Shown piece by piece: positions 112-50,972 of a DNA stretch of 50,972 nt. The stretch lies in IMG/VR virus record IMGVR_UViG_3300033141_003735, one strand, 5' to 3'. The DNA is from a virus. Numbering within the stretch: position 1 is the stretch's first letter; every line of letters begins with the position of its first letter. A program made the translations under genes and the position numbers. A model generated the notes under the pieces. It was not told the DNA's origin and searched no databases. It was given only the letters and a program-made list of their open reading frames with translations.

Positions 112-906
112 ATATACTTGCCCGTCCTTTTCAGCACATAAATCACAGCACTCAGGGTCAGCGTTAAACCTAACTTTCTCAACCCCCATTTGTTTATAGC
201 CCTGGAGTTCCCCTTCACCCAGAGCCTTAGCGGTCTCAGTCCTGGCTATGCGTTCAGTCCGGTACTTTTGGAGTTTTTTTGCATATCTTTCCGCATGTCT
301 AAATCTCTGCTCTGCTGTATAATGACTATATTTGGGGAGGGTCTCAAGTTCGGTTAATCGTCTCCCCACTGCTAAAGCTAATCTATCTGTAAGCCCCACC
401 ACTGGTCTCAATTCCCGGCCTATATGATAAATAGATTTGCCCTCATTTATACCCCATCGAATATAACTCCTAATGCCTTTCATGGTCTCCTTGGTAATCC
501 CGACTACTAATTCTGCTGAGTGTTCTTTCACCCATTCCACAGCCCCTTCACCTAGGGGGTCAAACCTGTCCTGTTTCAGCACCTTTCTTTCTACAACAGC
601 CTTACCGGCCTCGGTAAGAATCTCATGGAGTACAGGCCGGAAAAGCTCCTCTCCTTTTTTTCTCACGTCATCCCAATCTATCATATTCCGGGTTATAGTA
701 TCAGGCGCCCTGCCTTTCAAGGTCTTAGCCCTATTATCCCTAATATAATCTAACCAGGCGTTAAATACCTTGGCCACCTTGTCTTTGTTCTGGGTAATAA
801 GCCTTTTGTGATTCATTCTGTTAAGCTCATCACGTCTGGACTTTTCCAAAAAAACTTTTAAGGCTTTCTGTATTCTTATGAGCGGTTCAGTTTGGATTTG
901 AGGCAA
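1..906 (-). CDS. Head morphogenesis protein, Mu F / SPP1 gp7 family. N-extein is 70..906 and the first 23 intein codons are 1..69. The ORF runs off the window edge and continues at 50930 via the terminal repeat.
   Basis: TTG start at 906 lies 6 nt after AGGAG. My translation gives ...IARTETAKALGEGELQGYKQMGVEKVRFNADPECCDLCAEKDGQVYTIDEAQGVIPVHPN|CLPGDSLV. The IARTE...C..C...HPNC pattern is the Mu F domain signature, and the gene sits just after portal. Confidence 0.8.
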   Translation of the reverse strand, partial: MPQIQTEPLIRIQKALKVFLEKSRRDELNRMNHKRLITQNKDKVAKVFNAWLDYIRDNRAKTLKGRAPDTITRNMIDWDDVRKKGEELFRPVLHEILTEAGKAVVERKVLKQDRFDPLGEGAVEWVKEHSAELVVGITKETMKGIRSYIRWGINEGKSIYHIGRELRPVVGLTDRLALAVGRRLTELETLPKYSHYTAEQRFRHAERYAKKLQKYRTERIARTETAKALGEGELQGYKQMGVEKVRFNADPECCDLCAEKDGQVYTIDEAQGVIPVHPNCLPGDSLVSPCGRISGVTKRWYE

Positions 907-926
907 CTCTGGCTCCTAATTTTTCT

Positions 927-44451: not shown

Positions 44452-44481
44452 TTGACATAGCCTAGTGATATGTAATATAAT
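44452..44481 (+). promoter_or_regulatory. Sigma-70-type promoter (TTGACA-18-TATAAT) for the plus-strand cassette
   Basis: TTGACA at 44452..44457 and TATAAT at 44476..44481. Confidence 0.6.
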
Positions 44482-44500: not shown

Positions 44501-44644
44501 ATGAAAAAAATTATTTTTAATTTCCGTATTGAGGTAGATGTATTAAACAAATTAAAAAAGCTAGGCAAGGAAAAAGACAGAAGCATAGGTTATTTAATAA
44601 GGAAAGCTGTTCATGAATACCTCAAAGAGAATAGAAAAGTATAA
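44501..44644 (+). CDS. Ribbon-helix-helix (CopG/Arc-like) small protein
   Basis: My translation: MKKIIFNFRIEVDVLNKLKKLGKEKDRSIGYLIRKAVHEYLKENRKV. Confidence 0.55.
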   Translation: MKKIIFNFRIEVDVLNKLKKLGKEKDRSIGYLIRKAVHEYLKENRKV

Positions 44645-45640
44645 AAATAGAGACTGGTTATATAAGAAGTATGTCATAGAAAAACTTTCTGCATGTGAGA
44701 TTCAAAGGATCTGTTCAGTCGGAAACGGTACAATAGAAAGGTGGCTGAGAAAGTTTGGCATTGAAATCAGAAGTTACAGCGAAGCAATTAAGCTAATAAG
44801 GAAAAATAAATATTGGCATAGTGGTAATTTATCAAAACAAAAGATACAAAAGTACAGGAATAAGAATTGGCTATACCAGAAATATTGGGTAGAAGGCTTA
44901 GACTCGGTGCAGATGGCCAAAATTGTGGGAACCCAATCTAATGTAATTATGAGCTGGATTAGGGCTTTTAATATAAAAGTAAAGCCCAAAGGTGAAAACC
45001 AAAGAGGGCGAAAACATTATATCAGAAGAGTCTAAGCTCTTGATTTCTATAAAAGCCAAGAAAAGATGGCAAAGTAAATCATACCGAAAGAAGATGTCAC
45101 TTGTATTAAAAGGTCTTCAAGCAGGAAAAAATAATCCTAATTACGGGGGAGTTTATTCGAGGAAGAGATCGGTTAAAGAAAAAATTAGCAAAGCAAATAA
45201 AGGAAGAAAGATTAGTGAAGAAGAAATGGCTAGGCGTATTCAGTCATGGAAAACAAGGCCTTCTAAATTAGAGAAGATGTTTGATGATATTACTCCTCCT
45301 GAAATTAGATATACAGGAGATGGAGCCTGGTGGAGAAAACTAGATGAATGGGCATTATCATAATCCAGATTTTAAAGTCACTGGCCAGAATAAAGTAATA
45401 GAAATTTGGGGTTCGCATTGGCATAAAAACGATGATGGGTATTATCTGATTAATTTATATAGAAGAGCTGGGTTAGATTGCTTAATCATAAAAGAGTCTG
45501 AATTCTATCCTTTGACTAATTCTCCCTCTAAAAGGATTTTAAATAAAAATAGAAGGCTTAAAATACAAAGGAAGGTAAGGGCGTTTGTGAATGATAGCCC
45601 TAGCCAGTTGTTGCTGTCCCCCCCATTGAAAATCCGTTGA
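44613..45640 (+). pseudogene. Free-standing homing endonuclease gene (HTH repeats, NUMOD3-like, Vsr/DUF559-like PD-(D/E)XK) broken into three frames
   Basis: There are two copies of the HTH module: WLYKKY..IQRICSV..GTIERWLRKFGIEIRSYSEA and WLYQKY..MAKIVGT... NUMOD3-like motifs GKNNPNYGG and ISKANKGRKISEE follow. The nuclease core is PSKLEKMF...YTGDG / HYHNPDFKV..KVIEIWGSHWH. Frame changes occur near 44990..45005 and 45340..45350. Confidence 0.6.
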
Positions 45641-48335
45641 ATTTGCCTTCAATTATATCATTCCAGATTTCTTTCTCGTCTCCCAAATAGACGGAGATAT
45701 ACCAATCACCAGATTTGACCAGGTGGTTGTCCCCAGTGCCTCCCTTGTGATGGTCTTCTTCGGCCTGGTAGCATTCAATGATTTTAGCTTTAATAGGTTT
45801 TCCCTCGTGCATCAGCTTGATTTTTCCGCCCTTTATCATAAACTTTTTTAACGCCTTCCATATCTCTGAAGCAGAAGCCGCATCTCCCTGGGTATCTACG
45901 TCGTTTGCTGAGTACACAATACCACCTACGATATACTCTTTTTTGTTCACCTTAAGGAATCTAAAATAAGGAGAATCATCTTTTTTTATTATTCTTTCCA
46001 GGGCTTTTTTTATTTTCTCAGCTAGGCTACTCCACCACTCTTCCCAGTTTTTCTCCCCATAGGACGTTTTGCCAGCCACTACGATTCTAGGTCTGTTCTC
46101 AGTCCCTATATCTGAGATAGAAAACAACCCTTCTGATTTATCGATTTCCTCGCTTACTTTTTCAGCAAGAGAATCTAGGTTCTGGTCTCTCATGCGAAAC
46201 ACCACAAAGGCTACACGGTCTTTATCTTTACCCTCATCTGTGCTTCTTATCTCTACATGTGCTAAAGAATTTAAGCCCTCAAGCCAGGCATCTTTAATGT
46301 GTTTATCCACCATCAGGCCTTTCCAATTTTTTTTAGGTGAATCAGTTCGACCGCTTAAGGGCTTGGAAGGAACGACACCATAAACAGCTTTATATGCAAG
46401 CGTTGGGGAGTTTATACGTTCTTGCTTATCAACCTCTTTTTTATGGTCATCGTCGTCTAGTTTTCTCATCATCCAAATGCGCTTACCTTCCTCTGTTGGC
46501 ACATACGCCATAAGCCAGTTGCCGTCAAAGTGCCGGCTATTGGTAACGTGGAACTTCTTGGCATGCTCGTCAGCCTGGTAAAGAGACCAATTAAACTTAT
46601 CGATTCTTAACATAGCCGCATACATGTTTGCAGTTGCACCAACTTCCCCAGGCTCAAATATCTCTAGTTTGTTAACACCTGCTTTAAACCAACTCATAGG
46701 GCCTCGAATTATATCGATTTTAGTTTCGCCTTTTCTGGGAACCTTCCACCCAAATCTCAAGCTCTGACCTTTTTTGTACCCATAAATTTTATTCAGCCCT
46801 GAGAGGTTGCCTATCATAATCTCTCCACCCTCCCAATATTTATCTTTCTTTCTATGGAACCGTATATCTATATGGGCGCCCTGCTCTCCGATTTTATTCT
46901 TTAAGAGCTTCTCAAGATTCCTAAGGTCACCTCTGGCTACTATAGCTCGGTCTTTAATGTCCAGAAGGCTCTCGAGTTCTTTTTCCTCTATGCCCATTAT
47001 ATGAAGCTGAGCTACAGCATCACCTGAGTCGCCTTCTTCAAAATCTATGTTTCCCTCTACACTAGCCGCACCCTCTTCGTCCTTTACCTTTTTGAATTTG
47101 ACATTACGGATTACAGTCTGGACTCCCTGGGGGTACTCGTACTCTTTGGGCAGTTTGTACTTATCTACCCAGTCGAATTCGTAAGACCAAAGACTTTTCT
47201 CTTTATCGAAGCCCCAGTCCTTAGCCTCCTTATCAGTTATCTTATGTTTTTCTTTAAGGTCTTGGAATTCTTTTTGAGTAATCTTTATGGGCTTGTGGAA
47301 TTTAACCTCTCCATAGCACAAATCTCCACTGCATAGGAAAACAGTTTTCTCAACATACTCATCTGGGAGCTTCTTAATCTTAATAACTAGGTTCTTATCC
47401 CCATCAAACATGTACTTGCCATGAGGTTCCTGAAGATATATTCCCCGTCCGGAACCAATTGCTTTCTGTAGGATATTAGCCTTCTCTGCGATTTGTACAA
47501 CCTGGTTAGCATAATAAGGCTCTTTCCTCGCCTCGTCTTTATCAATCACCCTTGGGCCTAGCCAATCCAGTTTATTCTCGCTTGGGATAATCTCCTCAAT
47601 GCCTATAGTCAAAATATCCCCTGGGCTAGCATTTATCTTTGTGTTAAATGTCTTGCCTAGGTTCACTAGCTCCATATCACCAACACGGGTTATGTTTTGG
47701 TAGGGGCTATCTCCTTTCAATACCCCGCAGGTGTAGTTGTAATTGCCTCCTTTTACACTGTGCTTCTCTATGACCATTACTTTTATCTCAGCCTCTATTT
47801 TAAGCTTAGCCCAGCCTTCTATGCTTCCATCTACATCCCATATGCTTTCGATATCCTTGACCACAATCCCTTCAGACTGGGGATATTTAGCAAACTTTTT
47901 AAACGCTTTTTCTAGCTCGCTTTTATTGTTTACGACCTGGGTCTCTGTTATTTTAAAATTTTTAGATGACTTAAGATATTTATTATAGAACTCCTCAAGT
48001 TTTTTTCTTCTTTCACTAAAAGGCAATAGGTGTAGGTCTTTTTTCCAGAAAGGCAAATCGAAAACGGTACAGACTATTATTTCTCCTTCCGTAAGCTCTG
48101 GTTTATCAGCCATTAAAGTCATAAGCTTAATTCGAGGCAAAGGCTTCCCGTTCTTTTCTATACCCACTCCCCCGTCAAGAATGTAATCATCAGGTATCTT
48201 AGCTAAAACCTCCGTCAATGAAGCAAACTCTTTTGTTCTATCCTTACCACCTTCAGTCTTTATGCGGAATCTATCTCCTAATTTTTCAGCTATGCATCTA
48301 AAAGAATTAAGCTTTGGCTCAGCCACAAGTCCCAT
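45600..48335 (-). CDS. Multidomain head-module protein: ATP-dependent ligase-like NTase plus OB domains (N-terminally truncated), central domains (possible ASCH-like and LigD phosphoesterase-like), and a C-terminal XkdF-type prohead protease
   Basis: Ligase motifs are I KLNSFR (variant), III ILDGGV (variant), IIIa FDLPFW...PFSERRKKLEEF, IV SEGIVVKD and V GWAKLK. The C-terminus YIVGGIVYSANDVDTQGDAASASEIWKALKKFM...SGDWYISVYLGDEKEIWNDIIEGKFNGFSMGGTA matches XkdF. Confidence 0.6.
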   Translation of the reverse strand: MGLVAEPKLNSFRCIAEKLGDRFRIKTEGGKDRTKEFASLTEVLAKIPDDYILDGGVGIEKNGKPLPRIKLMTLMADKPELTEGEIIVCTVFDLPFWKKDLHLLPFSERRKKLEEFYNKYLKSSKNFKITETQVVNNKSELEKAFKKFAKYPQSEGIVVKDIESIWDVDGSIEGWAKLKIEAEIKVMVIEKHSVKGGNYNYTCGVLKGDSPYQNITRVGDMELVNLGKTFNTKINASPGDILTIGIEEIIPSENKLDWLGPRVIDKDEARKEPYYANQVVQIAEKANILQKAIGSGRGIYLQEPHGKYMFDGDKNLVIKIKKLPDEYVEKTVFLCSGDLCYGEVKFHKPIKITQKEFQDLKEKHKITDKEAKDWGFDKEKSLWSYEFDWVDKYKLPKEYEYPQGVQTVIRNVKFKKVKDEEGAASVEGNIDFEEGDSGDAVAQLHIMGIEEKELESLLDIKDRAIVARGDLRNLEKLLKNKIGEQGAHIDIRFHRKKDKYWEGGEIMIGNLSGLNKIYGYKKGQSLRFGWKVPRKGETKIDIIRGPMSWFKAGVNKLEIFEPGEVGATANMYAAMLRIDKFNWSLYQADEHAKKFHVTNSRHFDGNWLMAYVPTEEGKRIWMMRKLDDDDHKKEVDKQERINSPTLAYKAVYGVVPSKPLSGRTDSPKKNWKGLMVDKHIKDAWLEGLNSLAHVEIRSTDEGKDKDRVAFVVFRMRDQNLDSLAEKVSEEIDKSEGLFSISDIGTENRPRIVVAGKTSYGEKNWEEWWSSLAEKIKKALERIIKKDDSPYFRFLKVNKKEYIVGGIVYSANDVDTQGDAASASEIWKALKKFMIKGGKIKLMHEGKPIKAKIIECYQAEEDHHKGGTGDNHLVKSGDWYISVYLGDEKEIWNDIIEGKFNGFSMGGTATTG

Positions 48336-48885
48336 CGTCTTTTACCTCTAATTTTCCTAATAATAATTGATTTTCATATTCTAAAATTGAAATCCTTTCC
48401 TCTAATTCTTTAATCTTTTTCTTCATTGTGTTTATTTGGACATGATTGGCTTGGTTAGGTAATAACTCAAGATTTTCTATTCTATTATCATCTTTAATTC
48501 CATTTTTATGATGAACTACTTCCCAGGTTTCGAGACACCTTCCTAAATACTTTGCCATAACCAAACGATGTTCTCTGATATAACCATGATGATCAGCCAT
48601 TGGATAGAAAGGACTTTCTTCTTTTAGATTAATATATATATAACCTTCTTTTGTTTTAAGCTTCCCGCCTTTCCACCTTGGGTGGTCTTCTCGTTTATAG
48701 CCTATATTATTAAAAAGTTTTCTGCTACACTTAGCACAATGACCAGTATAATTAGGTCGATTCATTTTATTTAATTGAACCCATCGTTTCGAACCACAAT
48801 TTGGGCATATTACTAATCCATATTTATTCGAACCCTTTTTTCCTATTTCAAAGGGTCTCTTAACGTCTATAATTTCATTGTTCAT
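48319..48885 (-). CDS. HNH homing endonuclease inserted within the ligase-like coding region
   Basis: HHGYIREHRLVMAKYLGRCLETWEVVHHKNGIKDDNRIENLELLPNQANH is the HNH motif, with an N-terminal CPNC...CAKC zinc finger. The ORF starts 1 nt after the upstream stop and overlaps the downstream ATG by 17 nt. Confidence 0.8.
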   Translation of the reverse strand: MNNEIIDVKRPFEIGKKGSNKYGLVICPNCGSKRWVQLNKMNRPNYTGHCAKCSRKLFNNIGYKREDHPRWKGGKLKTKEGYIYINLKEESPFYPMADHHGYIREHRLVMAKYLGRCLETWEVVHHKNGIKDDNRIENLELLPNQANHVQINTMKKKIKELEERISILEYENQLLLGKLEVKDDGTCG

Positions 48886-48886
48886 T

Positions 48887-50089
48887 TCAAATCCTTTCTT
48901 TAGCCCAGTCCCATATCTGCTCTACTGTAAACGCCTCCGTATGAGTTAGAAAGCCGCTCATAGCAGGCTTAGGTGGAACAAACTCCCCAAACGGGGTAAG
49001 CTCTTTTTCCTTTTTAACCTTTGTCATCACGGCCAATGCTGTGTTTGAGGATTTTATAAGCTGAGACGACCAGCCCTTGCTTAGAATCTTTTTAAATTCA
49101 GTTAGGTTCTTGTACTCATGTTTATGGGTGGGGTCTTGTCTTTCGCCCAGAGGTACTATGACTATAGCTTTTTTCCTAGCCACTCTCTCCATTTCTTTAG
49201 CCAAAGACTTTGGATTGGTTACGTGTTCCAGCACATGGACTGCTGTCACGTTGTCAAATGAGTTATCTTCAAAAGGGATTCCTTTGTCTAAGTCATGCTC
49301 TTTGATATCGAGCTTCTTACCCCTTGCCATTTTAATAGCAGTTCTATCTACATCCACTCCCAGGACGTCCCTTCCATCTCCTTCCAGGAGCTTAAGAAGT
49401 TTTCCCGAACCGCAGCCTATGTCCAGAACCGAGCCTTTGCTTAGATTCTCAAGCACATGAGCATTGTCACAAAGAAGGCCTACATCCCAACTCTCTAATC
49501 CCTCATAATAATCCGCTGCTCTTTTAAGTTTAGCCTGTACGCTTTCCTTAACGTAAACTCTCTTAAGATTAGGTTTGACCCGAGCTACTAAATCAAAGAC
49601 AGGAATATAAGTGCTGTGAGGCCCACGAGGTGCATATACAAAATGCAAGTCTTTCTTTATTTGCCTCTTCAAGACCCTGCCTATTTTAAGCTCAAGGCCT
49701 TCGTCTCTATTTCTTGCATACTCCCGGATTATGATATCTAGGTCATTAGCTTCTCTCGGTCTCTTGACAAACGACCCCCCAATAGAAATATAGTCGTTTA
49801 CTATTACCTGGTCTCCTATGCTTTTAATATCAATTCCCGTCATGGCTTTTCTGAACGCCTCAATGTCCAAATCAGTTGTAGTGTGATGAGTGAGATTCCT
49901 CTTGTTCATCTCTCTTATGAGGATTTGATACTTGTCTATAAATTCAAAGCGGTCTAGTCCGCCGACCTCCCCACCTTCTCGGCCCTTGAGGTTCTTGTTA
50001 TAGAGCTGTATAAATCTAAGGCGCATGTTATATAGTTCTTTATCATTCTCCTTTTTGATTGATTTTGCTGTAATATTCTCTATTTCCAT
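48887..50089 (-). CDS. Pol-beta-type nucleotidyltransferase plus class I SAM methyltransferase protein, ending in the N-terminal segment of the ligase-like domain (start revised to MEIEN at 50089)
   Basis: ISIGGSFVKRPREANDLDIIIRE fits the GS-x10-DxD NTase motif. VLDIGCGSGKLLKLLEGDGRDVLGVDVD...VHVLEHV is the SAM MTase. The C-terminus is FVPPKPAMSGFLTHTEAFTVEQIWDWAKERI. Confidence 0.55.
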   Translation of the reverse strand: MEIENITAKSIKKENDKELYNMRLRFIQLYNKNLKGREGGEVGGLDRFEFIDKYQILIREMNKRNLTHHTTTDLDIEAFRKAMTGIDIKSIGDQVIVNDYISIGGSFVKRPREANDLDIIIREYARNRDEGLELKIGRVLKRQIKKDLHFVYAPRGPHSTYIPVFDLVARVKPNLKRVYVKESVQAKLKRAADYYEGLESWDVGLLCDNAHVLENLSKGSVLDIGCGSGKLLKLLEGDGRDVLGVDVDRTAIKMARGKKLDIKEHDLDKGIPFEDNSFDNVTAVHVLEHVTNPKSLAKEMERVARKKAIVIVPLGERQDPTHKHEYKNLTEFKKILSKGWSSQLIKSSNTALAVMTKVKKEKELTPFGEFVPPKPAMSGFLTHTEAFTVEQIWDWAKERI

Positions 50090-50090
50090 T

Positions 50091-50972
50091 TTACACCACC
50101 GCTGTGAACGTACATTCGCAGTTATGACTTGCAATATTATTAGCAATGTACCAATGGTTTTTGGTTTGCAAATTATATACATATCCGGTATAATATTCAG
50201 TATGGACACTAATGACTTTATCGAACTTTATAGGAAAGGGTTGTCCATTTATAAAATTGCTAATATCTATGGAGTTAGCCCCTCTTGGGTCTATTTCGTA
50301 GTTAAAAGAGCTGGGGTTAATAGGACACGCTCCGAGGCTTTGCGTCTCCAACCTAGGGAAAGATTTGTTGCCATGTCTAAAAAAGCAGTAATTGCTCGTC
50401 AAGGACGCGGACGGGAAATTACTTTTGCCGAACGGTTGCGTAGAGCCAAAACCCGTGAACTTAGACAATCCGCCACCGGCCCCACTGAAAAATTGGTTGT
50501 CATTGCTCTTAGCAAAAAAGGAATTCATGGTGTAGCCCAAAAGGCTATTGGTCCCTATAATTGCGACTTGGCCGTCGGGACTAACATCGCCGTGGAAATC
50601 CTCAGCACTTATTTTCGTTTTTACGGTAAGCGTAGACTTAGAGAGGAAAAACGACTCCGCAATTTGCTCAATTGGGGCTGGAATATAATTTATATTCTTC
50701 TTAATCCGCGAAATCCAGTTATAACCAACGTCCAAAGAGATAACGTAGTCTCCAAGATTCAAGAAATTAATAGGCACCCAACCGAAATTACTCAATACTG
50801 GATGATTGGGAGTAGCGGTCAGATTCTTGCCAGTGGTGGTTTTAATGATGATAACATCTCCCTCGTACCACCTTTTCGTAACTCCAGAGATCCTGCCACA
50901 GGGAGATACAAGAGAGTCCCCAGGTAGACAGTTCGGATGAACTGGAATTACCCCCTGTGCCTCATCAATCGT
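50091..50972 (-). CDS. Mu F/SPP1 gp7-like head morphogenesis protein, 3' portion: end of N-extein, 270-aa intein and 9-aa C-extein (CECTFTAVV)
   Basis: Continuous minus-strand frame ...TIDEAQGVIPVHPN|CLPGDSLV...NIASHN|CECTFTAVV*. Joins 1..906 through the terminal repeat. Confidence 0.8.
   Translation of the reverse strand, partial: TIDEAQGVIPVHPNCLPGDSLVSPCGRISGVTKRWYEGDVIIIKTTTGKNLTATPNHPVLSNFGWVPINFLNLGDYVISLDVGYNWISRIKKNINYIPAPIEQIAESFFLSKSTLTVKTKISAEDFHGDVSPDGQVAIIGTNSLLGYTMNSFFAKSNDNQFFSGAGGGLSKFTGFGSTQPFGKSNFPSASLTSNYCFFRHGNKSFPRLETQSLGACPINPSSFNYEIDPRGANSIDISNFINGQPFPIKFDKVISVHTEYYTGYVYNLQTKNHWYIANNIASHNCECTFTAVV
50166..50194 (+). promoter_or_regulatory. Sigma-70-type promoter (TTGCAA-17-TATAAT) antisense to intein block F, 7 nt upstream of the plus-strand ATG
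   Basis: TTGCAA at 50166..50171 and TATAAT at 50189..50194. ATG at 50202 with no Shine-Dalgarno site, implying a leaderless mRNA. Confidence 0.55.
50202..50927 (+). CDS. HTH plus Vsr/DUF559-like PD-(D/E)XK homing endonuclease encoded antisense, entirely within the intein
   Basis: The HTH is MDTNDFIELYRKGLSIYKIANIYGVSPSWVYFVVKRAGVNRTRSEA. The nuclease core is TGPTEKLVVIALSKKGIHGVAQKAIGPYNCDLAVGTNIAVEILSTYFRFYGKRRLREEKRLRNLLNWGWNIIYI. It shares the module family of 44613..45640. Confidence 0.65.
   Translation: MDTNDFIELYRKGLSIYKIANIYGVSPSWVYFVVKRAGVNRTRSEALRLQPRERFVAMSKKAVIARQGRGREITFAERLRRAKTRELRQSATGPTEKLVVIALSKKGIHGVAQKAIGPYNCDLAVGTNIAVEILSTYFRFYGKRRLREEKRLRNLLNWGWNIIYILLNPRNPVITNVQRDNVVSKIQEINRHPTEITQYWMIGSSGQILASGGFNDDNISLVPPFRNSRDPATGRYKRVPR

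Follow-up and report, generated by a model that had tools for sequence, protein, structure and literature searches.

A 50,972-nucleotide stretch of viral DNA (IMG/VR record IMGVR_UViG_3300033141_003735), referred to below at its full length as the window, carries a class-1 intein in a Mu F-like head-morphogenesis gene and, on the opposite strand of this intein, a gene of the EDxHD/Vsr-like homing-endonuclease family. We consider it very likely that the two form a single mobile cassette which uses both DNA strands and occupies a conserved site of the head-morphogenesis gene, between HPN and C(E/R)C.

According to this reading, the minus strand would be translated as a 270-residue intein, excised from the head protein by its two HINT halves. 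The plus strand would give a 241-residue EDxHD/Vsr-like protein in which a helix-turn-helix (HTH) module is followed by a helical linker, the nuclease core and, at the C-terminus, a beta-rich domain that shares its codons with splicing blocks A and B of the minus strand. If I-Bth0305I and canonical inteins are taken as models, endonucleases of this family would cut intein-less Mu F alleles in co-infecting phages, and the repair following cleavage would copy the intein and the endonuclease gene together. The window has the features of the antisense-endonuclease intein class: an antisense endonuclease open reading frame (ORF), a contiguous intein, and an intein frame which has no endonuclease fold of its own.

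A sequence-only reading of the window had proposed a homing endonuclease gene encoded antisense within an intein. Its core, that a real and selected endonuclease-family gene lies opposite the intein, was borne out by the polarity of substitutions, by AlphaFold and Foldseek, by the co-occurrence of the two frames in the family, and by a cassette swap between close phages.

Two open frames in exact antiparallel register

The antisense ORF (241 codons and a TAG stop; positions 50202..50927, plus strand; protein P0001) lies wholly inside the minus-strand intein (50121..50930). Translation confirmed the coordinates given in the sequence-only reading, and JGI gene calling had called exactly this protein. 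The ORF and the intein frame are in exact antiparallel register, with their codons paired one-to-one, and the TAG (50925-50927) is the complement of intein codon 2, CTA, as had been proposed. In this register, TTA, CTA and TCA codons of one frame are stops in the other. The plus ORF contains 18 Leu codons (CTT 7, TTG 6, CTC 5) and 14 Ser codons, with zero TCA; the counts made in the earlier reading were all correct. TTA, CTA and TCA are likewise missing from the intein frame (14 Leu and 28 Ser codons). TTA is indeed common elsewhere: in the other genes of this 38.9% GC genome, TTA and CTA make up 29% and 12% of Leu codons, respectively, TCA makes up 22% of Ser codons, and the three together account for 4.4% of 11,419 codons.

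Under the synonymous codon usage of the genome, an open intein frame has a probability of 2.4e-6 given the plus protein, and an open plus frame one of 6.2e-7 given the intein protein. The longest run free of TTA, CTA and TCA among the 11,419 codons of the other genes is 124 codons. The longest plus-strand stop-free stretch of the window (307 codons; the runner-up has 163) is located here. Chance opening of either frame is excluded (P approx. 1e-6).

The plus-strand protein

The plus-strand protein is composed of (i) an N-terminal HTH DNA-binding module (residues 1-45; 50202..50336, plus strand), followed by a helical linker (residues 46-95), (ii) a Vsr-like/EDxHD nuclease core (residues 96-176; 50487..50729, plus strand), in which E96, D122 and E132 are present (alignment of 78 loci), and (iii) the C-terminal domain of the endonuclease-like protein (residues 177-241; 50730..50924, plus strand), which is dual-coding with intein residues 3-67.

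When the plus protein was analyzed alone, the Pfam matches were sub-threshold (HTH_23, 4e-4; HTH_7, approx. 5e-4; MTES_1575, 1e-3), and single-sequence PDB searches with either frame revealed nothing beyond HTH or mini-intein matches. In family members the HTH matches reach 8e-15, and some relatives contain tandem HTH repeats (2-5 copies). The family profile matched PDB entries 3r3p (nuclease domain of I-Bth0305I; 9e-4) and 3hrl (deposited as an "endonuclease-like protein"; 4e-3), and the HTH region gave profile matches to resolvase HTH domains and to 2lvs.

The AlphaFold model of the plus protein (119 homologues) had a mean predicted local distance difference test score (pLDDT) of 91.3 and a predicted template modelling score (pTM) of 0.71. 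Its best PDB match in Foldseek was again 3r3p (I-Bth0305I; prob 1.0, target-normalised TM score of 0.63). Within the HTH, helices were predicted at residues 3-11, 16-23 and 27-36, and the C-terminal domain was modelled as a helix (176-191) and four strands, with a pLDDT of approx. 81-98 over residues 177-240. The catalytic Asp (Vsr D51) corresponds to D122, and the Glu at the position of Vsr F62 to E132; both are family-invariant and are present here. The profile matches, together with the match of the model to 3r3p, place the plus protein in the EDxHD/Vsr-like homing-endonuclease family, an assignment based on sequence profiles and a predicted fold. The view that the ORF encodes a real protein with an HTH and a Vsr-type core, for which Pfam alone gave only sub-threshold matches, was in this way confirmed by profiles and structure.

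A nuclease encoded in the intein frame was ruled out: the nuclease fold and the profile matches are found in the plus frame, and the intein model matches HINT domains only. The intein-frame string EDFHGD was also rejected as an EDxHD motif, as EDxHD denotes a composite of dispersed residues.

Selection on the two frames

Substitution polarity was analyzed in a codon alignment of 78 loci (777 pairs), in which single-nucleotide differences were classified as synonymous in the plus or in the minus frame. Plus-synonymous differences outnumbered minus-synonymous ones in the HTH (7033 versus 2281), the linker (7399 versus 2463) and the nuclease core (13512 versus 4259), so that synonymous changes favour the plus frame 3:1 over the first 176 codons. 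The tail (residues 177-241) gave 7556 versus 8995 (approx. 1:1.2). In the N-extein, which served as a control, the direction was opposite (258 versus 1209; 1:4.7). The polarity of purifying selection therefore flips inside the intein, and the plus frame is the selected one over the first 176 codons; the central region of homologous inteins follows the antisense frame.

The per-codon profile agreed with the pair counts, plus-synonymous sites being free across residues 1-127. For the plus-frame invariants E96, Y119, N120, D122, R151 and G159, synonymous codons are used freely and the paired intein residues vary.

The first locus set (82 loci) was picked by full-length tblastn with the plus protein, which favours intact plus ORFs. 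Both frames were open in all 82 loci, with a plus ORF stop-free for at least 247 codons and the minus frame in exact register. This bias was removed in a second set, composed of 58 distinct inteins retrieved via the intein frame only. In 58 of these 58 the antisense ORF was open to at least codon 241 and matched the hidden Markov model (HMM) of the endonuclease at E <= 1.6e-60. When inteins with a decayed antisense ORF and a retained FHGD motif (described below) were sought in this intein-frame-retrieved set, a disrupted ORF was found in none of the 58.

The intein and its host gene

The ends of the contig are identical (positions 1-111 and 50862-50972 of the window; 111 bases). The phage genome is therefore circularly closed (50,861 bp), and the Mu F-like gene with its intein crosses the junction. 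On the minus strand, an open frame runs from 50972 to a TAA at 50093..50091. It comprises the last 14 codons of the N-extein (50931..50972; the remainder of the N-extein lies at 112..915), the 270-residue class-1 intein (50121..50930; Cys1...TPNH...VYNLQT...ASHN, with Cys at +1; assigned from translation, Pfam, AlphaFold and Foldseek), and a short C-extein, CECTFTAVV, with its stop codon (50091..50120; translation). The translation runs through ...TIDEAQGVIPVHPN into the intein (CLPGDSLV...TATPNHPVL...GYVYNLQTKNHWYIANNIASHN) and out into the C-extein; the insertion point in the head-morphogenesis gene is thus between HPN and CEC. Insertion between HPN and C is common to most of the 82 loci.

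The hallmarks of class-1 inteins are present: C1, T40-P-N-H43 (the TxxH of block B), and ASHN270 followed by Cys. The intein frame matched the Pfam family Intein_splicing (50 bits; cut-off, 35.8), and AlphaFold modelled residues 1-67 and 230-271 as a HINT fold with pLDDT >90. The best Foldseek matches of this model were the RadA and Mtu RecA mini-inteins (prob 1.0), with GyrA and DnaB inteins also matched at prob 1.0. When the exteins were joined in silico, Phage_Mu_F was matched across the junction at positions 3-111 of 112 (42.4 bits; cut-off, 29.6). From these motifs and the predicted fold, the HINT halves (approx. residues 1-70 and 232-270) should excise the intein from the head protein.

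Tether, FHGD site and dual-coding tail

Most of the insert between the HINT halves appears to be dictated by the other strand. Over intein residues 117-243 (50202..50582, minus strand), a constraint of the intein frame's own was not detected: plus-synonymous sites are free (relative entropy approx. 0.8-1.0) and the intein-frame amino acids are poorly conserved. In the AlphaFold model of the intein frame (32 homologues), pLDDT was <50 over residues 133-163 and 167-221, and Foldseek searches with this model revealed only mini-inteins and HINT domains, and no other fold. As modelled, residues 117-243 are mostly a disordered tether, which needs only to be free of stops.

The sequence-only reading had regarded the central part of the intein frame (approx. 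150 codons) as filler. This holds for approx. residues 117-243 and fails for the adjoining part of the insert, where the motif E-D-F-H-G-D-V (residues 110-116; 50583..50603, minus strand) lies antisense to N128-IAVEI-L134 of the endonuclease. The FHGD site pairs with a strand of the endonuclease which has the family form P-V-A-V-E-V, and its codons are frozen at all three positions (among 66 distinct rows, GTC in 58, GCC in 62, GTG in 62 and GAA in 65); the other invariant residues of the endonuclease show no comparable freezing. FHGD was present in all 58 inteins retrieved via the intein frame. Selection in the intein frame also acts on I87, A91 and F94, three residues which share the same side of a predicted helix. 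A function, either in the intein frame or at the nucleotide level, is therefore assigned to a short part of the insert. A literature search for the string DFHGD found nothing.

Endonuclease residues 177-241 overlap intein residues 3-67, including splicing blocks A and B, and here the constraints of the two frames are interleaved. Y199, G206, R229, G234 and Y236 are conserved in the plus frame only, and T31, G24, T40, N42, H43 and G50 in the intein frame only. Given these interleaved constraints and the confident model of the tail, the last 65 endonuclease codons represent genuine dual coding, and not a mere run-on of the ORF to the next stop.

Start, stop and expression signals

The translation signals of the family are built from intein codons. 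The start, found in 36 of 63 distinct loci, is an ATG antisense to the block F His codon that precedes V-Y-N-L. The antisense of block F Asn-Leu-Gln/Glu provides a Shine-Dalgarno (SD) sequence, GGAGG or GAGG, 8 nt upstream (30/36). The stop is the antisense of intein codon 2 (Leu2) in 52 of the 63. The gene thus spans from block F to codon 2, with its last 65 codons dual-coding, and does not simply occupy the endonuclease slot of a mini-intein, as had been supposed.

In the window, Tyr replaces the block F His and Asn-Leu-Gln is encoded by AAT-TTG-CAA; because of these changes, the family ATG and SD are missing. The ATG of the window is displaced 7 codons downstream of the family start, and no SD-like sequence was found before it. 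A sigma-70-like candidate promoter, TTGCAA-17-TATAAT (50166..50194, plus strand; 10/12 match), ends 7 nt before this ATG. The palindromic TTGCAA (−35) derives from the antisense of the block F Leu-Gln codons and TATAAT from that of Tyr-Tyr-Thr codons, and the whole site lies within a segment that differs from a sister contig (see below). The description of the site in the sequence-only reading was accurate; its significance is another matter, as the density of sites of this score is not above that in shuffled sequences (15 found versus 15.9 +/- 4.4). When the region before the ORF was compared among 64 distinct loci for a recurring promoter-like site, the best scores were similar to those at control positions. 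Judged from the sequence, expression from this site as a leaderless mRNA is possible.

Distribution and mobility of the family

Searches with the plus protein (tblastn) identified relatives in at least 108 GenBank phages (Salmonella 63, Pseudomonas 15, Gordonia 11, Escherichia 6), further hosts being Vibrio, Haemophilus and Pantoea, among others. In phages Snoke and SaI_NFG_5577, whose loci were opened, the relative lies opposite an annotated head-morphogenesis gene; the other listed records have a head-morphogenesis, minor-capsid or hypothetical-protein annotation at its position. A 273-residue intein had already been marked by the annotators of Snoke. In Gordonia phages Angelicage, Fosterous and Sampson, the tblastn matches fall within MuF-like minor capsid genes. 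At least 546 IMG/VR stretches encode a relative, and 1,852 representatives of 50%-identity clusters match at E <= 1e-30. Most of the listed homologous proteins sit on contigs of approx. 1 kb, which we take to mean that gene callers pick the antisense ORF mainly where the end of a contig cuts the longer Mu F ORF. A blastn search with positions 48000-50972 against GenBank phages found no relatives except for a short HNH stretch.

Comparison with the sister phage contig L012 (IMGVR_UViG_3300033148_007580) revealed a swapped segment (50155..50858). The flanks of the two contigs are 91-100% identical (49008-50193 and 50859-50972) and the interior of the segment is approx. 50% identical. The site is therefore occupied by different endonuclease and intein-core alleles in two close phages, and the breakpoints fall within the conserved ends of the intein. 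In the L012 allele, the motif is intact (GGGWHFTGRH) and an SD-like AAGG is present.

Related inteins were also observed in other settings. Protein P0136 (contig L083, positions 1501-2907), encoded beside a portal gene, contains a shorter intein of 195 residues, which keeps the helix, DFHGD and an open antisense ORF of approx. 170 codons with an HTH and without GGxWH; from its sequence, it looks like a miniaturised form of the cassette. Proteins P0150 and P0152, which have a deoxycytidine monophosphate (dCMP)/cytidine deaminase Pfam domain, contain related inteins (24-27% identity) with an FH(G/N)D motif, and the intein family is therefore not restricted to Mu F-like hosts.

Loss of the catalytic motif and alternative explanations

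In the window, VEILSTYFRFYGKR stands in place of the family motif VEV(F/W)GGxWHxxGxH, with LSTYFRFYGKR at the position of GGxWHxxGxH. The Trp-His pair of the motif corresponds to Vsr W68/H69 (Dassa 2009, PMC2677866). Its Trp is the intercalating residue, and its His has been proposed as the general base, both in Vsr and in I-Bth0305I (H213) (Taylor 2011, PMC3239194). This His, which belongs to the definition of EDxHD, is typical of the family (62 of 66 distinct rows) and is absent from the window copy, which has F138-R139 at the Trp-His position. Other His-less lineages are the nearest relative, L003, and Salmonella and Escherichia phages. Since both the catalytic Trp-His/GG motif and the SD are missing, the window protein is probably a weak or inactive nuclease, which is still maintained as a protein; the homing activity of this copy, implied by the sequence-only reading, is accordingly doubtful.

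Several observations weigh against the two-strand cassette. The sequence-only Pfam and PDB matches are weak (1e-3 to 1e-2), the pairwise substitution counts are phylogenetically non-independent, and the first locus set was biased as described. Part of the confidence that AlphaFold assigned to intein residues 76-130 could reflect covariation that stems from the other strand. To these are added the signals of the window copy itself, which has no SD, a promoter-like site at chance density, and neither G135/G136 nor W138/H139 of the family motif.

The same features of the copy would be expected if the antisense gene of this phage were a dead relic, left in a fixed intein and open only because too little time has passed. 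The replaced motif, the displaced start without an SD and the non-significant promoter match all fit this explanation, and decay after fixation is predicted by the homing-cycle model (introduction of the preprint, bioRxiv 10.1101/2025.01.02.630785). However, in a genome in which TTA, CTA and TCA make up 4.4% of codons, the plus frame would be open with a probability of 6e-7 given the intein protein. Moreover, substitutions between the window and L003, both of which are His-less, are still polarized towards the plus frame (47 plus-synonymous versus 18 minus-synonymous single changes), as are those of a His-less pair formed by Snoke and a Salmonella phage (42 versus 25), and none of the 58 inteins retrieved independently of the plus frame had a disrupted ORF. 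We regard a dead relic as unlikely, although it is the most serious of the alternatives.

Another explanation, which we consider improbable, is that the His-less variants have been repurposed and act as a DNA-binding factor (a repressor, a protector of the target site, or a helper of recombination or splicing) instead of a nuclease. The ORF and its HTH have been maintained despite loss of the motif in at least two separate lineages (window/L003; Salmonella and Escherichia phages), and the 195-residue intein of P0136 also keeps an HTH-bearing antisense ORF that lacks GGxWH. Against this, the proposal is pure inference, and E96, D122 and E132 are still present, which leaves room for residual or altered catalysis.

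A non-nuclease role in His-less lineages also forms part of a broader proposal, which we put forward tentatively: the cassette may be an old, obligately two-stranded mobile element, and not the product of an occasional backward landing of a free-standing endonuclease gene in a mini-intein, and its His-less lineages may keep the protein for a role other than that of a nuclease. This would follow from the fact that both ORFs are kept in every retrieved member, from the construction of the SD, start and stop out of blocks F and A, from the approx. 65 codons that appear to encode two folded, separately selected domains, and from the VAVE/FHGD site, which seems indispensable to both. If this is true, few antiparallel overlapping gene pairs of phages would be as long or as well supported, and this one would have escaped annotation in Salmonella and E. 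coli phages that have been studied intensively.

Far less credible is the idea that the plus ORF is a by-product and that the intein frame encodes a genuine central domain, mirrored by antisense similarity. Antisense translations of conserved proteins do resemble each other (TGRY mirrors block A), the intein frame matches phrog_15127 over residues 14-168, and FHGD is invariant. This explanation is nevertheless already contradicted by the 3:1 plus polarity over 176 codons with its reversal in the extein, by invariant plus residues with free synonymous codons opposite intein residues that vary, by the duplication of HTH repeats in the plus frame of relatives, and by the difference between the plus model (pLDDT 91, with a nuclease fold match) and intein residues 133-221 (<50). 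Finally, a fractured gene as in Dassa 2009, with the halves of a split intein separated by a free-standing endonuclease gene, shares the endonuclease family and also occurs in phages, but was ruled out and has practically no likelihood, as the intein frame is open throughout, with no stop between blocks B and F and without the stop and start codons of such genes, and the endonuclease gene, co-extensive with the intein, lies on the other strand.

Neighbouring genes and a second endonuclease-like locus

Directly downstream of the Mu F-like gene, on the minus strand, are genes encoding a 400-residue protein with an S-adenosylmethionine (SAM)-methyltransferase domain (48887-50089) and an HNH_3 endonuclease (48319-48885). 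The final 17 bases of the latter overlap the start of a 911-residue ORF (45600-48335, minus strand) with an odd pairing of domains: an N-terminal ATP-dependent DNA ligase and a C-terminal XkdF-like prohead protease, separated by approx. 600 residues.

The sole other sizeable plus-strand coding region of the genome, the rest of which codes on the minus strand, is a free-standing gene of the same superfamily (44601..45640, plus strand), broken into three overlapping frames. It contains two HTH copies and an EDxHD-like core with the string VIEIWGSHWH, and the colinear matches of its three frames (44601..45637) to the family HMM (two HTH copies, 7e-5; linker, 0.45; core with VIEIWGSHWH, 9e-3) weakly support the earlier suggestion that it belongs to the same family as the antisense gene. 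Its first fragment matches the PHROG family "HNH endonuclease" and DNA-binding families, and a perfect 12/12 TTGACA-18-TATAAT is located upstream (44452-44481). The gene could be decayed, frameshifted or mis-sequenced.

Comparison with known systems

The sequence-only reading had considered the arrangement to be undescribed. It is in fact already known, although only recently described, and the window adds a further case. In a survey of actinophage inteins, Gosselin, Arsenault & Gogarten (bioRxiv 10.1101/2025.01.02.630785, October 2025 version) reported 63 inteins with non-canonical endonucleases, including antisense VSR-like (EDxHD) endonucleases in full inteins, which were matched to 3R3P and 1CW0; no recognisable fold was obtained for the intein-frame centres. 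The four hosts listed in that survey for non-canonical endonucleases include minor capsid proteins, with the type that these carry left unstated, and the authors predict an under-annotation of elements of this sort. Antisense LAGLIDADG endonuclease genes in inteins, such as Synechocystis DnaX, have been described since 1998 (Gorbalenya 1998; Gogarten 2002; both as cited by Gosselin et al.). As far as the citing text describes them, they resemble the window in having an endonuclease ORF opposite an intein that is open in its own frame, and differ in the nuclease family.

Compared with the actinophage inteins of Gosselin et al., the window comes from an uncultivated phage of 39% GC, and the family described here extends to phages of Salmonella, Escherichia, Pantoea, Pseudomonas, Vibrio and Haemophilus. 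The window ORF starts in block F, overlaps blocks A and B for 65 codons and lacks the catalytic His. In the text of Gosselin et al. we did not find (i) a spread far beyond actinophages, (ii) the exact register of the codons, in which blocks F and A supply the SD, start and stop, (iii) the frozen VAVE/FHGD site, or (iv) the absence of decayed members in an intein-anchored sample.

The fractured genes of Dassa 2009 (PMC2677866) involve the same endonuclease family, recognizable by Asp51, a Glu at the Phe62 position and Trp68-His69, and are found in phages too. As in the window, the endonuclease gene comes with expression signals of its own and shares part of its length with the adjacent coding sequence. 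There, however, it is on the same strand and the intein is split by stop and start codons, whereas the window gene is antisense and the intein contiguous. I-Bth0305I (Taylor 2011, PMC3239194; 3r3p) shares with the window protein an N-terminal HTH/NUMOD region placed before a C-terminal Vsr-like nuclease domain, but is encoded in a recA group I intron instead of an intein. Its active site contains both Asp196 and His213, of which the window protein has the Asp and not the His, and the window protein possesses an extra C-terminal domain.

Routine annotation suppresses the antisense ORF, and GenBank phages show the head-morphogenesis gene only. At least 108 phages with sequenced genomes, Jerseyvirus and Kagunavirus therapy candidates among them, carry an unannotated ORF of an endonuclease family. 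An antiparallel overlap of this length (approx. 240 codons), statistically strong and with both strands under selection, is rare, and would be useful as a benchmark for the detection of overlapping genes and for the limits that the genetic code sets on dual coding. The system is relevant to two questions of intein evolution: how inteins acquire endonucleases (the "splicing first" model), and how contiguous inteins are related to the split ones of fractured genes. The kept-open tether indicates that the HINT domain tolerates approx. 125 arbitrary residues between its halves.

A wider parallel is offered by collaborative homing, in which introns move with free-standing endonucleases, and by the antisense endonuclease gene in a Didymium group I intron. 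In these cases, as here, separate expression units move together; they differ from the cassette described in this study in that splicing takes place at the RNA level and is not accompanied by dual coding in codon register.

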